DNA of 64,000 nucleotides, from assembly GCF_056746865.1 (NCBI RefSeq), contig NZ_CM163382.1, one strand, 5' to 3'. The translations under genes and the position numbers were made by a program. Under the pieces are notes generated by a model, which was given only the letters and a program-made list of their open reading frames with translations, had not been told where the DNA came from and ran no database searches. Shown in pieces: positions 791 to 54,961 of the stretch; the first letter of the stretch is position 1; each line of letters starts with the position of its first letter.

Positions 791-813
791 TATACCTTTA
801 TACCTGTTATACC
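791..813 (-). promoter_or_regulatory. NanR operator: three direct GGTATA repeats (GGTATAACAGGTATAAAGGTATA on the minus strand) in the nanA promoter
   Basis: Repeats read directly about 40 bp upstream of the nanA start codon; matches the known NanR operator architecture. Confidence 0.75.
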
Positions 814-876: not shown

Positions 877-1668
877 TTATTTCTTTTTGTTGGTGCTCTG
901 ACCGAAGGCATGCCAGGTAGCAGAGACGCTGTTGAGATGCGATTGCAACGCGCGATCGGCTTCATCGGGATCATGGCGGCGGATCGCGTCAACGATCGCA
1001 ATATGCTGTTGATAGCTAACGTTGTTATGCTCGTGCAGAGCCTGATCAGCCACGGTTGGACGTGCGGCGATCAGCCAGTCGAGCAAGGCAACGTGGATCG
1101 CCATGAAGATTGGGTTACCGGGGATCTCCGCCAGCACGCGGTGGAAATCAACGTCTGAACGAATGAATGCCGCGTTGTTATCCAGCGACTGACTGTTGAT
1201 TTCCAGTGCTTTTGCCAGCAAATCGATTTGCTCATCGGTGGCGTGTTCAGCCGCATAGCGCACCAGGCTGGATTCAAAGAACAGACGTAATTGTTCGAAA
1301 TGGGCAATCCCACCAGGATGAGAAAGGAAATCTTTCGCCATGCCGGAAAGCTCGCCGATGATGGTGTCCGCAGAAGGACGTGAGACGCGAGCGCGTTCGC
1401 CGTTGTTTATTTGCACCAGACCTTTACGTTTTAACGCTGCCAGCGCTTCACGCACCGAAGGACGCCCGACATTAAAGAACGCCATCAGTTCGCGTTCAGA
1501 CGGTAATTGTTCACCTTCGCCAAATTCACGACGGCGGATCATCTGTTCCAGCTCTTCTTCCACCATTTCGGAGAGTTTTTTACGCGCCAGCGGGCGGCTA
1601 CGCAAGTTGCGACCAATTGCAGGTGAAGAATCTTCGGTTTGCGAATCAAATGCGTTCATAAGGCCCAT
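877..1668 (-). CDS. nanR: NanR, GntR/FadR-family repressor of sialic acid catabolism
   Basis: 263-aa [55 protein letters not shown]... recognised as E. coli NanR. Confidence 0.95.
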
Positions 1669-1774
1669 TCTGTAAGGTCAGTGTGATTAACATCATCAGT
1701 GACATCCTATCACAGGATTGAAAGTAGGGGAAAATGGCAGGGTTTTCTCTTTGTGCCTCATCATTACCATAATT

Positions 1775-1783
1775 AACGGAATA
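1775..1783. repeat. Target-site duplication AACGGAATA, left copy, flanking IS1
   Basis: Identical 9-mer directly abuts both IS1 ends (1775-1783 and 2552-2560). Confidence 0.85.
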
Positions 1784-1798
1784 GGTAATGACTCCAAC

Positions 1799-2302
1799 TT
1801 ATTGATAGTGTTTTATGTTCAGATAATGCCCGATGACTTTGTCATGCAGCTCCACCGATTTTGAGAACGACAGCGACTTCCGTCCCAGCCGTGCCAGGTG
1901 CTGCCTCAGATTCAGGTTATGCCGCTCAATTCGCTGCGTATATCGCTTGCTGATTACGTGCAGCTTTCCCTTCAGGCGGGATTCATACAGCGGCCAGCCA
2001 TCCGTCATCCATATCACCACGTCAAAGGGTGACAGCAGGCTCATAAGACGCCCCAGCGTCGCCATAGTGCGTTCACCGAATACGTGCGCAACAACCGTCT
2101 TCCGGAGCCTGTCATACGCGTAAAACAGCCAGCGCTGGCGCGATTTAGCCCCGACGTATCCCCACTGTTCGTCCATTTCCGCGCAGACGATGACGTCACT
2201 GCCCGGCTGTATGCGCGAGGTTACCGACTGCGGCCTGAGTTTTTTAAATGGCGGAAAATCGTGTTGAGGCCAACGCCCATAATGCGGGCGGTTGCCCGGC
2301 AT
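1799..2302 (-). CDS. insB: IS1 InsB (transposase ORF, expressed as InsAB' fusion by -1 frameshift)
   Basis: 167-aa ORF ...[54 protein letters not shown]... recognised as IS1 InsB. Confidence 0.93.
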
Positions 2303-2496
2303 CCAACGCCATTCATGGCCATATCAATGATTTTCTGGTGCGTACCGGGTTGAGAAGCGGTGTAAGTGAACTGCAGTTGCCATGTTTTACGGCAGTGAGA
2401 GCAGAGATAGCGCTGATGTCCGGCAGTGCTTTTGCCGTTACGCACCACCCCGTCAGTAGCTGAACAGGAGGGACAGCTGATAGAAACAGAAGCCAC
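2221..2496 (-). CDS. insA: IS1 InsA (DNA-binding inhibitor of transposition)
   Basis: 91-aa [45 protein letters not shown]...; start codon reads GTG in this copy. Confidence 0.93.
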
Positions 2497-2551
2497 TGGA
2501 GCACCTCAAAAACACCATCATACACTAAATCAGTAAGTTGGCAGCATCACC

Positions 2552-2560
2552 AACGGAATA
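2552..2560. repeat. Target-site duplication AACGGAATA, right copy
   Basis: See left copy. Confidence 0.85.
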
Positions 2561-2824
2561 ATTAACTATTGCGAAAAATTAATGTAACGCAGATAAAAAC
2601 ATCCCGATTGAATTATTTATAAGACTATTCACGAGCATTATGAATATTATGAATGTGTTCTTACAAAATAATCATAAGCGCATATTTTTTAATGAAAAAT
2701 CACCTCACCTACAATTAAAAACACGACATCCGCACCATAAATAACCTTGCAAAAAATATAACATCATTGTTTTCAATCTGCCGTTTATGGGATTGACCGT
2801 TTTCTTTTGACACGGAGTTCAACA

Positions 2825-4192
2825 ATGTTCGGCATAATTATATCTGTCATCGTATTAATTACGATGGGCTATTTGATCCTGAAAAACTACAAACCTCAGG
2901 TGGTGCTGGCTGCCGCAGGTATCTTCCTGATGATGTGCGGTGTCTGGTTAGGGTTCGGTGGTGTGCTCGATCCCGCCAAAAGCAGCGGCTACTTGATCGT
3001 CGATATTTATAATGAAATCCTGCGCATGCTGTCCAACCGCATTGCTGGATTGGGGCTGTCGATTATGGCAGTGGGCGGTTATGCCCGCTATATGGAGCGC
3101 ATAGGGGCAAGTCGCGCGATGGTGAGCTTGTTAAGCCGCCCGTTAAAACTCATTCGCTCGCCGTATATTATTCTGTCGGCAACTTACGTCATCGGCCAAA
3201 TCATGGCGCAGTTTATTACCAGCGCCTCCGGTCTGGGTATGTTGCTGATGGTCACCTTATTTCCGACGCTGGTGAGTCTGGGAGTAAGTCGTCTCTCTGC
3301 GGTGGCGGTTATCGCAACCACCATGTCCATTGAGTGGGGGATTCTGGAAACGAACTCCATTTTTGCTGCCCAGGTCGCAGGAATGAAAATTGCCACTTAC
3401 TTCTTCCACTACCAGCTTCCGGTCGCCTCTTGCGTCATTATCTCGGTGGCGATCTCCCACTTTTTCGTGCAACGCGCTTTCGACAAAAAAGATAAAAATA
3501 TCAATCACGAACAGGCAGAGCAAAAAGCTCTCGATAATGTCCCGCCGCTCTATTACGCCATTTTACCGGTGATGCCGTTAATCCTGATGCTCGGCTCGCT
3601 GTTCCTTGCCCACGTCGGGCTGATGCAGTCAGAACTGCATCTGGTGGTGGTGATGTTACTGAGTTTGACGGTGACGATGTTTGTTGAGTTCTTCCGCAAG
3701 CATAACTTGCGCGAAACAATGGATGATGTGCAGGCGTTTTTTGACGGCATGGGTACGCAGTTTGCCAACGTGGTAACGCTGGTGGTCGCGGGTGAAATAT
3801 TTGCGAAAGGCTTAACGACGATTGGCACTGTCGATGCGGTTATCAGGGGTGCGGAGCATTCTGGTCTGGGCGGTATTGGCGTGATGATTATTATGGCGCT
3901 GGTCATTGCCATTTGTGCCATTGTGATGGGCTCAGGCAATGCGCCGTTTATGTCATTTGCCAGTCTTATTCCGAATATCGCAGCCGGACTACATGTGCCA
4001 GCGGTTGTAATGATTATGCCGATGCATTTTGCCACGACGCTAGCGCGCGCTGTTTCGCCGATTACTGCGGTGGTGGTCGTTACGTCAGGAATTGCAGGCG
4101 TTTCGCCTTTTGCGGTAGTGAAGCGGACAGCGATCCCCATGGCAGTCGGTTTCGTGGTGAATATGATTGCCACAATCACGCTATTTTATTAA
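2825..4192 (+). CDS. dcuD: DcuD, C4-dicarboxylate transporter family (DcuC paralog)
   Basis: Protein begins [34 protein letters not shown]...; the track ORF at 2807 carries a short upstream extension, ATG at 2825 chosen. Confidence 0.92.
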
Positions 4193-11286: not shown

Positions 11287-12300
<1,014 letters not shown>

Positions 12301-12599
12301 TTACAATGACCACATCTCAAGAATGTGTAGTCACGCAAGTTTAGCGTTTATGCATTTAATTGCCGTAATCAGGAACCTAACTTACGTAATTAACAGTCGC
12401 TTATGCATTAGCGCAACATTCCAACAGGTGGTGACAATATACCCTACCGTTCAGCCAAAACAACATCAATTTGATAACAATTAATTTACTTTTAAGCAGA
12501 ATTTGCATGCCGTGACGCAGGCATGTTTCTCAATAACGAAATTTGATAAAATCCCGCTCTTTCATAACATTATTTCAGCCTTCTTCAGGGCTGACTGTT

Positions 12600-12640
12600 T
12601 GCATAAAAATTCATCTGTATGCACAATAATGTTGTATCAA
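12600..12640 (+). promoter_or_regulatory. Probable tandem ARG boxes (ArgR autoregulation) in the argR promoter
   Basis: TGCATAAAAATTCATCTG followed by TATGCACAATAATGTTGTAT, resembling the TGAATwwwwATTCA consensus, 20-60 bp upstream of argR. Confidence 0.55.
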
Positions 12641-12656
12641 CCACCATATCGGGTGA

Positions 12657-13130
<474 letters not shown>

Positions 13131-32084: not shown

Positions 32085-32915
32085 TTGAAATCATTATTCA
32101 ATCGGTTAACGGGAAAAGCGGTTAGCCGGACAGCTTTCGTCGAACATCTTGGTCATGAAGTTGTACAACATCATCCAAACTGGAAAGTCATGATTTCGAC
32201 TGACCACAAATTGATGCGCATTGATACGGGTCACCAAACTGTGGAAATCACCCTTGATGATGCTTACAAACGTTATCAAGCCGCACCAGACCCGCTGGAA
32301 GAAGTGGCTGCAGATATGCTGAAACAGCTTGCAGAAATGCTGCCGACCGGGCGCTGTATTGTCCCGGTGATTAAAGAAAAAGCCTGGCTGGATACCGTTC
32401 GCCAACAGCTTAGCCAGTATGAGTCTGATCCAGAGGTCCTCAACGCCTCGCTTGATTTTGCCTGGGAAGACTTTAACGATGAGTTAATTATCCTGTTTGC
32501 TGAAGACGGTAGCGAAACCATGCGCTATCTGATGCGCTGCGAAGTGACCATTGACCGCGAACAAGCCATCAGTAATTTGAAGCAAATATTGCCGGAAGTT
32601 ACGGCTGAAATCGTTGATACAGGCGCAAACGATGGAAAAGTTGCCGTTATCTCCGCAGGGGGTACTTATGAGCCCAGTCTGATGCTCATTGACGATCTTT
32701 GGGTGCAATCACCCGATCCTGAATGCGGCGACCTGTTAGTGACCGTTCCCTCCAGAGGAAAACTGTTTTTCACCCACAATGATCAGCCAGCAAATCTCAG
32801 CGCATTACGACAGTTAACAGAACAATGCTTCCGTGAGGATGACCATCCTCTGACAACACAGATATTCATCCGCCGTAACGGTCACTTTTATCCCTGGGTA
32901 GAAACCTTGCATTAA
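32085..32915 (+). CDS. Hypothetical protein, 276 aa, function unknown
   Basis: TTG start with GAGGG 8 nt upstream, 831-nt open frame, own intrinsic terminator downstream, host-like composition. No catalytic or nucleotide-binding motif recognised. Confidence 0.65.
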   Translation: MKSLFNRLTGKAVSRTAFVEHLGHEVVQHHPNWKVMISTDHKLMRIDTGHQTVEITLDDAYKRYQAAPDPLEEVAADMLKQLAEMLPTGRCIVPVIKEKAWLDTVRQQLSQYESDPEVLNASLDFAWEDFNDELIILFAEDGSETMRYLMRCEVTIDREQAISNLKQILPEVTAEIVDTGANDGKVAVISAGGTYEPSLMLIDDLWVQSPDPECGDLLVTVPSRGKLFFTHNDQPANLSALRQLTEQCFREDDHPLTTQIFIRRNGHFYPWVETLH

Positions 32916-33011: not shown

Positions 33012-33475
33012 TGTCACGCGGCAAATTCTGAATGCATCACATAGCCGCACTGCCGCCTGACAAAACAGTTTACCTTCTGCAAAATGGGGGGAATAATCTG
33101 ATTTTATTTGATTACAAATTAACCACTTAAACCTATTTCATGCAGAGCATTGTCAGGCGGTTGATTTTGCGTGCTTTAGCATTCACGTTTATCCAGACGA
33201 TGAAGTGAAAATTGCGTAATCCTCAGCAACCGCTGCGTAATGTCGTCTATCTTGTCGCGATCCTGGCATCCCTACATTATTTGTGGTCTGTGAAGATTAT
33301 CTCATTGCAGCCCCTCATCTTCGCAGGGCTGGCTTTACAGCTTTTAGCCTTACGTTATAAGAAGTTCCGTCGATGATGGCGCTAATTTCGTGAATTGTGC
33401 GGCTTGTTGCAAATTACACGGTGTTGAAGGTTATTTACATGTTAGCTGTTGATTATCTTCCCTGATAAGACCAGT

Positions 33476-41810: not shown

Positions 41811-42208
41811 GATTAATTATTCAGGAAATAAATATATTCGACACAGGATGAGAAAATAGCGAAGGTTAATCTATCACCTAATGTATATTTATACGAGAGG
41901 CTAATATTGAGTTGCTATAAATCGTCAAATAAATAACGTTTATTATTTACCTAAAATACATTCACTCTATCAATATATATTTCAATTTACGAGGATTTGA
42001 TTCTACCTCTTTCAACCCGCGTCAAAATAAAACAGTAGAATATTAATCTTTTTTTGTGTTTATGTGCCTTGAGACGCCAGTATTCATAACTATTCCTTAC
42101 ATCGACGAATGATAATTTGTAGGATAGCGAACTGTATTTTTCTTTCTGCGAGTTAACGCGTTGCCTTTTTGGGTAAATAACGCGCTTTTGGTTTTTTGAG
42201 GAATAGTA

Positions 42209-46956: not shown

Positions 46957-47386
46957 CTGCACAGGGCGCGGAGTACCGCACTCTGTTTAACGATACAGTA
47001 TCTCACCATAAGATAAAATATTGCTATATTCTGCTGGCTAATTCCCTGCTGATTTAGCATGTTATATCGCGTTATTTCGCTGCTTTCGAAATAACGCATC
47101 AATTTAATTTTCACACTTCCCACCAGAATTATACTCACGCTAACAATCATTATTCTGCTTAGTAAAAAACGCGTAAATATTTTGCGCCAAAATGTGGCGC
47201 ATGTTTCATTTTCGCACCATTGCGGGGCGCTGTTTTTATTATTTCCTGTCTACACTCAGCTTATTGCGACGCGAAATCGTGCGCAAAAGCTGGCACTACT
47301 TTTGCTTATAAGAGGATGGCCACAGACAGGTAAAAGACGTTTCCCAAACGTCCTATAACGATAATTTTCGCCTCACAGGAAGCATT

Positions 47387-51589: not shown

Positions 51590-51600
51590 CGCTTGATTTG

Positions 51601-51720
51601 ATGTCTGGCAGTTCCCTACTCTCGCATGGGGAGACCCCACACTACCATCGGCGCTACGGCGTTTCACTTCTGAGTTCGGCATGGGGTCAGGTGGGACCAC
51701 CGCGCTACTGCCGCCAGACA
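51601..51720 (-). rRNA. rrfF: 5S rRNA, distal copy of rrnD
   Basis: 120-nt match to E. coli 5S rRNA on the minus strand; 5' end reads UGUCUGGCGGCAGUAGCGCGG. Confidence 0.95.
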
Positions 51721-51757
51721 AATTCTTTTCTAATCTGCCGAACTTTAACCTAAAAAG

Positions 51758-51833
51758 TGGTGCTGATACCCAGAGTCGAACTGGGGACCTCACCCTTACC
51801 AAGGGTGCGCTCTACCAACTGAGCCATATCAGC
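51758..51833 (-). tRNA. thrV: tRNA-Thr
   Basis: Reverse complement reads GCTGATATGGCTCAGTTGGTAGAGCGCACCCTTGGTAAGGGTGAGGTCCCCAGTTCGACTCTGGGTATCAGCACCA. Confidence 0.95.
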
Positions 51834-51845
51834 ACGCTAAATTTG

Positions 51846-51965
51846 ATGCCTGGCAGTTCCCTACTCTCGCATGGGGAGACCCCACACTACCATCGGCGCT
51901 ACGGCGTTTCACTTCTGAGTTCGGCATGGGGTCAGGTGGGACCACCGCGCTAAGGCCGCCAGGCA
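51846..51965 (-). rRNA. rrfD: 5S rRNA, proximal copy of rrnD
   Basis: 120-nt match to E. coli 5S rRNA; 5' end reads UGCCUGGCGGCCUUAGCGCGG. Confidence 0.95.
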
Positions 51966-52056
51966 AATTCTGTTTATCAGACCGCTTCTGCGTTCTGATT
52001 TAATCTGTATCAGGCTGAAAATCTTCTCTCATCCGCCAAAACATCTTCGGCGTTGT

Positions 52057-54961
<2,905 letters not shown>

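Follow-up and report, generated by a model that had tools for sequence, protein, structure and literature searches.

The 64-kb stretch of E. coli DNA analyzed here (the window) carries an IS1 element in the spacer between nanR and dcuD. The locus raises two questions: whether the copy records a genuine and recent transposition at this site, and whether its presence alters the expression of either neighboring gene.

IS1 element and target site

A complete IS1 of 768 bp and of IS1B type occupied positions 1784-2551 on the minus strand, a result on which the sequence, the repeat finder and the pattern searches agreed. Its right inverted repeat (IRR, GGTAATGACTCCAACTTATTGAT, 1784-1806, plus strand) lay on the nanR side and its left inverted repeat (IRL, GGTGATGCTGCCAACTTACTGAT, 2529-2551, minus strand) on the dcuD side, each recovered by the repeat finder and by pattern search. 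The two arms, 23 bp each and both beginning GGTRATG, were 78% complementary according to the repeat finder and showed 0 mismatches to a degenerate consensus of two known IS1 ends. The same pattern search returned these two IS1 ends only in the whole 64-kb window, against a chance expectation of 0. A promoter-like match (CTGCCA-16-TATGAT) was located inside IRL and pointed into insA.

The list of open reading frames gave insA (91 aa, 2221-2496, minus strand) and the insB' frame (1799-2302, minus strand), which overlap at the A6C frameshift motif TTTAAAAAAC (2239-2248, minus strand; position 304-313 of the IS1 sense strand). A -1 frameshift at TTTAAAAAAC produced an uninterrupted InsAB' of 232 aa spanning 2496-1799 on the minus strand, so that insAB' is transcribed in the direction of nanR. 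InsAB' matched the NCBIfam model NF033558 ('IS1 family transposase') with 243.8 bits against a cutoff of 100 and over profile positions 1-199 of 199, and it also matched the N-terminal zinc-binding domain NF050000.

A target-site duplication of 9 bp, AACGGAATA, flanked the element at 1775-1783 (left copy) and 2552-2560 (right copy), and was recovered from the sequence, by the repeat finder and by pattern search. AACGGAATA occurred exactly twice in the window, both times perfectly and each time abutting one IS1 end. The preliminary description had placed an intact IS1 (both ends, insA, insB and the A6C site) with a perfect 9-bp duplication at 1775-2560, and this interval ran exactly from duplication to duplication. 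Every testable defining feature of the IS1 family was present, with the same length of 768 bp, 23-bp imperfect terminal repeats, insA and insB', the -1 frameshift at A6C and the 9-bp duplication.

The window IS1 had 100% identity to plasmid copies annotated as IS1B and 98.96% identity to the copy of IS1A type in K-12 C3026. Copies of the IS1A and IS1B types are found in E. coli K-12 and on resistance plasmids, for example in Tn9. RefSeq labels the element in the genomes EC31, EF5-18-41 and CFSAN061770 as 'IS1-like element IS1B family transposase, programmed frameshift'. The element itself thus shows no difference from known IS1, and what is particular is the insertion site of the lineage alone; it is a familiar element at a new site, already in RefSeq at this site in three genomes, and not a new kind of feature.

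Both flanking genes were intact. nanR (263 aa, 877-1668, minus strand) matched NCBIfam NF003011 with 408.5 bits, and dcuD (455 aa, 2825-4192, plus strand) matched NF007317 over its full length with 1030 bits, both scores being far over the family cutoffs. The nanR ATG at 1668 was separated from IS1 by 115 nt, which places the terminal IS1 base at -116, and the dcuD ATG at 2825 was 273 nt from IS1; the distances first given for the insertion were therefore accurate. The NanR operator (GGTATA)3 in the nanA promoter, a motif described in 10.1101/2020.04.22.056440, was intact at 791-813 (minus strand), as had also been noted. Rfam gave no family match in the nanR-dcuD spacer. A sigma-54 site catalogued under dcuD, 2.2 kb away, was set aside as irrelevant.

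Elsewhere in the window, the region between acuI (yhdH) and accB held two less familiar features in the EC31 annotation. One was a 276-aa hypothetical protein (32085-32915, plus strand), whose sole NCBIfam match was a weak one of 22.6 bits, where the cutoff is 221, and the other a YedZ-like pseudogene fragment at about 33074-33376.

Empty site, distribution and age of the insertion

We compared the locus with complete E. coli genomes. MG1655 carried no IS1 between nanR and dcuD and contained an exact 80-mer of the joined flanks with a single AACGGAATA, in line with the initial suggestion that MG1655 lacks this copy. Strain 118UI (human urine, Mexico) corresponded to the window minus IS1 and one copy of the duplication, with 0 mismatches in 3,261 bp. 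The left junction was present as one continuous, 100% identical piece in 3 of 5,426 complete genomes (CFSAN061770, EC31 and EF5-18-41) and the right junction in 2 of 5,426 (EC31 and EF5-18-41); only the latter two had both. The copy is strain-specific, as first proposed. The carriers came from meat duck in China (EC31), chicken (stool) in Laos (EF5-18-41) and raw-milk cheese in Egypt (CFSAN061770).

Copies of insertion sequences are a classic source of misassembly, and an IS1 copy misplaced at this locus by assembly or annotation would be one explanation of the insertion. Against this, EC31 and EF5-18-41, two complete genomes assembled independently, agreed at both junctions, CFSAN061770 agreed at the left one, and the perfect 9-bp duplication repeats a sequence found once in the empty site. 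We regard the chance of such an artefact as negligible.

The window was 100% identical to EC31 and EF5-18-41 across 22,083 bp. In the comparison with EC31, the remaining 41.9 kb showed 15 mismatches and 6 gaps, in the rrn operon alone. These differences clustered at about 51590-52060, at the 5S-tRNA-Thr-5S end of the operon, and may reflect either genuine differences among rrn copies or noise from assembly.

Across window positions 2561-24000, at least 30 other genomes were 100% identical to the window, and among them EC31 alone carried the IS1 junction. The insertion is very recent, since the 21 kb that follow IS1 on its right side are unchanged in at least 30 genomes without the element, and it is younger than any substitution in this flank. 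The perfect duplication, the exact empty site and the identical flanks without IS1 bear out the early reading of a bona fide recent event: this is a genuine, very recent, lineage-specific transposition of an intact IS1.

Many conjugative plasmids, from Escherichia, Klebsiella, Salmonella and Enterobacter, carried the 768 bp with 100% identity. Among them, the E. coli plasmid NZ_CP023145.1 from raw-milk cheese can be placed with CFSAN061770 by its source and its adjacent accession number, which makes a resident plasmid a plausible donor of the IS1. The suggestion that the insertion came from an IS1-rich lineage did not hold. In the carrier chromosomes, IS1 matches numbered 2-3 (EC31), 12-14 (EF5-18-41) and 9-10 (CFSAN061770), where the median genome has 10, and these per-record counts rule it out.

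Deletion next to IS1 in a sibling genome

In CFSAN061770 the left flank and the IS1 were identical to the window, and past IRL the sequence restarted at window position 2813. The deletion amounted to 261 bp (window 2552-2812) and included the right copy of the duplication. It left the IS1 tip (IRL) 12 nt from the dcuD ATG, with the GGAG ribosome-binding site retained. All native DNA upstream of dcuD was thereby removed in this genome (locus 4040-4100), so that CFSAN061770 offers a naturally occurring test of transcription outward from IS1.

Intramolecular replicative deletion by IS1 leaves an element without direct repeats (PMC9330008). CFSAN061770 kept IS1 and the left junction and lost 261 bp on the IRL side together with the right duplication, so its allele is what would be expected as the product of such an IS1-mediated adjacent deletion. 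The same does not apply to the window allele, in which both copies of the duplication are present. The intact reading frames and ends of the window IS1, together with the IS1-adjoining deletion in its sibling, indirectly indicate that the copy is probably active.

The nanR-dcuD spacer as a repeated IS1 target

We searched complete E. coli genomes with the nanR flank joined to either IS1 end as queries. IS1 lay no more than about 800 bp from the start of nanR in 22 genomes in the orientation of the window and in 43 genomes in the opposite orientation (44 hits, one of them unrelated), which gave about 65 genomes with IS1 in or near the nanR-dcuD spacer. We mapped 18 loci onto the empty-site sequence, in which coordinates beyond 1783 equal window coordinates minus 777. 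The mapped loci represented at least 17 distinct junctions, or independent IS1 events, at the spacer, and all 11 intact insertions examined had perfect duplications of 8-9 bp.

Besides the window clade at 1775-1783 (AACGGAATA), insertions in the same orientation as the window were located, in empty-site coordinates, at 1729-1737 in EP91B (duplication GGAAAATGG), 1740-1747 in the laboratory strain K-12 C3026 (GGGTTTTC), 1875-1883 in FORC_031 (AATGTGTTC), 1947-1955 in PCP06171 (CGACATCCG), 2032-2040 in AH01 (TGACACGGA), 2067-2075 in QEC11-421 (CTGTCATCG, dcuD codons 7-10) and about 2117-2126 in T2 (CCTCAGGTG). The opposite orientation was seen at 1740-1747 in the AR24.2b clade of 15 genomes (GGTTTTTC), 1877-1884 in UTAK-5 (TGTGTTCT), 2067-2075 in Evo1 (CTGTCATCG, dcuD codons 7-10) and 2090-2098 in E41 (GGCTATTTG). 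Deletion derivatives at the spacer were present in LR-48, EC2641, FDAARGOS_943, QDFD216 and the ECONIH4 clade (about 21 genomes). Among the mapped loci, no IS1 junction lay between the nanR ATG and 1737.

Two of these sites were micro-hotspots that had received IS1 independently in both orientations. The first, window 1740-1747 (GGGTTTTC), was occupied in the AR24.2b clade and in the K-12 derivative C3026, whose separate IS1 copy (locus 2765-3532) sits 80 bp from nanR on its upstream side, is flanked by an 8-bp duplication and is missing from MG1655. The second was window 2844-2852 (CTGTCATCG, dcuD codons 7-10), hit in QEC11-421 and Evo1, and it coincided with the start of a hairpin flagged as terminator-like (2847-2867).

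LR-48, EC2641 and FDAARGOS_943 had the right junction in common, IS1 being followed by dcuD codon 7, and had left junctions at window 1750, 1748 and 1762, respectively, with the entire spacer and the dcuD start gone in each. They arose either through a deletion adjoining an IS1 inserted at the hotspot of codons 7-10 or through recombination between two IS1 copies. In QDFD216 (1771-3190), the IS1 beside nanR preceded remnants of IS5-family and IS3-family transposases, beyond which came an unrelated esterase-like gene; dcuD and its neighbors have been replaced or rearranged.

Genomes without dcuD

About 19% of E. coli genomes (about 1,037 of 5,411) had neither dcuD nor its upstream region. A count of large spacer disruptions, taken as genomes matched minus genomes with at least 80% coverage, is confounded by these genomes, and their subtraction left about 58 disruptions, near the number that IS1 already explains. 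In the genomes without dcuD, a gap of 107 bp separated nanR from the stop codon of sspB (W224N 2610-2716, equivalent to about 1669-1742 of the window), and nanR was present as a divergent allele whose 5' end showed about 87.5% identity. Upstream of nanR, W224N had the sspB terminator hairpin and then about 70 bp that aligned with the dcuD-containing allele, the sequence farther upstream being unrelated. The homology between the two alleles started near window 1740, at the position of the first micro-hotspot for IS1 (1740-1747).

dcuD is reportedly not expressed under most tested conditions (PMC6414658). With its absence from about 19% of genomes, this means that dcuD is clearly dispensable.

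Comparison with control spacers

The same kind of IS1-junction query was applied to three other spacers of the window. The nanR-dcuD spacer (GC 33%, with 25-28% in places) had 65 genomes with IS1 nearby. IS1 was found within about 1 kb of the acrS flank of the acrS-acrE spacer (41811-42208, GC 31%) in 23 genomes and within about 1 kb of the yhdV flank of the yhdV-yhdW spacer (46957-47386, GC 41%) in 30 genomes, and the mdh-argR spacer (12226-12659, GC 38%) had no genomes with IS1 nearby. The raw count at nanR-dcuD was two to three times that of acrS-acrE and yhdV-yhdW, a count that is inflated by two clones (about 15 and about 21 genomes).

The control counts indicate that IS1 builds up in AT-rich spacers beside dispensable genes. 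According to PMC9330008, which cites Zerbib et al. (1985), IS1 favors AT-rich targets. This preference, together with tolerance near dispensable genes, probably explains the recurrence, and the nanR-dcuD spacer is then probably not special. Selection for IS1 specific to this locus was unsupported once the control spacers had been scored.

Predicted effect on nanR

A position-weight-matrix scan identified a candidate nanR core promoter with an extended -10 (TTCCCC-17-TGaTAGGAT, 1704-1732, minus strand, score 9.2). This proximal candidate was conserved in the dcuD-less W224N (TTCGCC...TGcTACGAT), within the roughly 70 bp that follow the sspB terminator. Its conservation there, where the sequence farther upstream is unrelated, argues that it is the nanR core promoter, and the dcuD-less genomes, read as a natural deletion series, suggest a nanR promoter contained in the roughly 70 bp that precede the start codon. 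The IS1 end was 52 bp upstream of the -35 of the proximal candidate, at about -87 from the predicted start.

The preliminary description had proposed that the insertion could displace the native nanR promoter. That proposal is weakened, since the conserved extended -10 candidate at 1732-1704 is retained, with IS1 52 bp upstream of its -35. The nanR core promoter was probably left intact by IS1. Because the candidate stays with nanR and the region upstream of it is naturally replaced in other genomes, a modest change in nanR at most would be expected, and a large effect on nanR is unlikely. Toward nanR, the junction formed a promoter match (TTGGAG-17-AATTAT) that scored 6.3 by consensus match alone, against 8.5-10 for native candidates.

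The alternative is that IS1 lowers nanR through the loss of a distal promoter or of activating sequences, with partial derepression of the sialic-acid regulon (nanATEK-yhcH, nanCMS and yjhBC) and altered control of fimB, and that this is adaptive in the host gut. Distal sigma-70-like matches in the sense of nanR, for example TTGTAA-18-CATAAT, lay about 190-220 bp upstream in the empty allele and outscored the proximal candidate. These matches, at window 2666-2637 and 2698-2671 (minus strand), were moved 777 bp from nanR by IS1, and nanR expression would fall if they were a real promoter. At least seven independent IS1 junctions fell at 1737-1783, just upstream of the proximal candidate. In an evolution experiment that selected for NanK recruitment or derepression of the nan operon, two lineages acquired the same IS5 insertion between nanR and dcuD, and in one of them it was fixed; the authors tied it to nan regulation, and its exact position is not given (bioRxiv 10.64898/2026.02.02.703383). 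Fixation under nan selection implies that an insertion in this spacer can alter regulation in a way that selection acts on.

Several results speak against such a loss at the window allele. About 1,037 genomes keep only about 70 bp after the sspB terminator with nanR intact, so the sequence beyond about -45 is dispensable in nature. The stretch between the ATG and 1737 was free of IS1 junctions among the mapped loci, control AT-rich spacers gathered IS1 at similar rates, and the allele was confined to three genomes with no sign of a sweep. We therefore consider a lowering of nanR unlikely, though it is the most credible of the alternatives considered here.

A broader version holds that the spacer is a naturally selected site, at which IS1 or IS5 upstream of the nanR core promoter tunes NanR, sialic-acid catabolism and fimB-dependent fimbriation in animal hosts, and that the window allele is one adaptive event in a poultry- and food-associated clade. 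Our literature search found no report of IS1 at nanR or dcuD. We give this version a slim chance, slightly below that of the preceding one.

Predicted effect on dcuD

Insertions of IS1 or IS5 at bglGFB and upstream of flhDC, and of IS1, IS2 or IS10 upstream of acrEF, are known regulatory mutations mediated by insertion sequences at AT-rich, silenced loci. The window insertion resembles them in that an insertion sequence likewise lies in an AT-rich spacer, upstream of the poorly expressed dcuD and beside a regulator gene. An insertion in the nanR/dcuD spacer, the IS5 copy described above, has been selected in laboratory evolution (bioRxiv 10.64898/2026.02.02.703383). The window insertion differs from those at bglGFB, flhDC and acrEF in that the predicted junction promoters are weak and in that other IS1 events at nanR-dcuD destroy the neighboring gene as often as they preserve it.

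By analogy, IS1 might turn on the silent dcuD, through an outward or junction promoter at IRL or through lost silencing of the AT-rich upstream region. IS1 can form fusion promoters and has activated acrEF (PMC9330008), the IRL end contains a good -35 hexamer (TTGGCA) 8 nt from its tip, and the region upstream of dcuD has a GC content of 25-37%. However, the best junction promoter toward dcuD (TTGGCA-18-TTAACT) scored 5.9 by consensus match alone, against 8.5-10 for native candidates, lacked the key A2 of the -10 and lay about 260 nt from the ATG. The best native candidate in the sense of dcuD in the position-weight-matrix scan (TTTAAT-16-TACAAT, window 2688-2715) was retained. Many other IS1 events destroy dcuD, by insertion at codons 7-10 or by deletion of its start, and the gene is missing from about 19% of genomes, which points to a dispensable gene rather than a target of activation. 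Activation of dcuD by the window IS1 is very improbable.

Discussion

The evidence makes it highly probable that the window allele arose by recent transposition of an ordinary, intact IS1B-type IS1 into the AT-rich nanR-dcuD spacer in a small E. coli clade, with little effect on nanR. An IS1B-type IS1, of a kind common on conjugative plasmids, jumped into the spacer between the divergent nanR and dcuD in a recent ancestor of the poultry- and food-associated clade of EC31, EF5-18-41 and CFSAN061770. We infer that the spacer is targeted repeatedly through the AT-rich preference of IS1 and the dispensability of both neighboring genes, with no locus-specific selection.

The effect on nanR is probably small, as the gene retains its likely core promoter together with the 52 bp that precede the -35. 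Read-through of insAB' in the direction of nanR and the weak junction promoter could slightly raise nanR transcription. For dcuD, 273 bp of native upstream sequence are left, and the gene is most likely as poorly expressed as before.

The insertion is a useful clade marker for the EC31/EF5-18-41/CFSAN061770 lineage and otherwise a routine strain-specific copy. It illustrates how plasmid-borne IS1 seeds chromosomal change, with a sibling that already has a 261-bp deletion beside the element. If the insertion does alter NanR levels, sialic-acid use and type 1 fimbriation would be affected.
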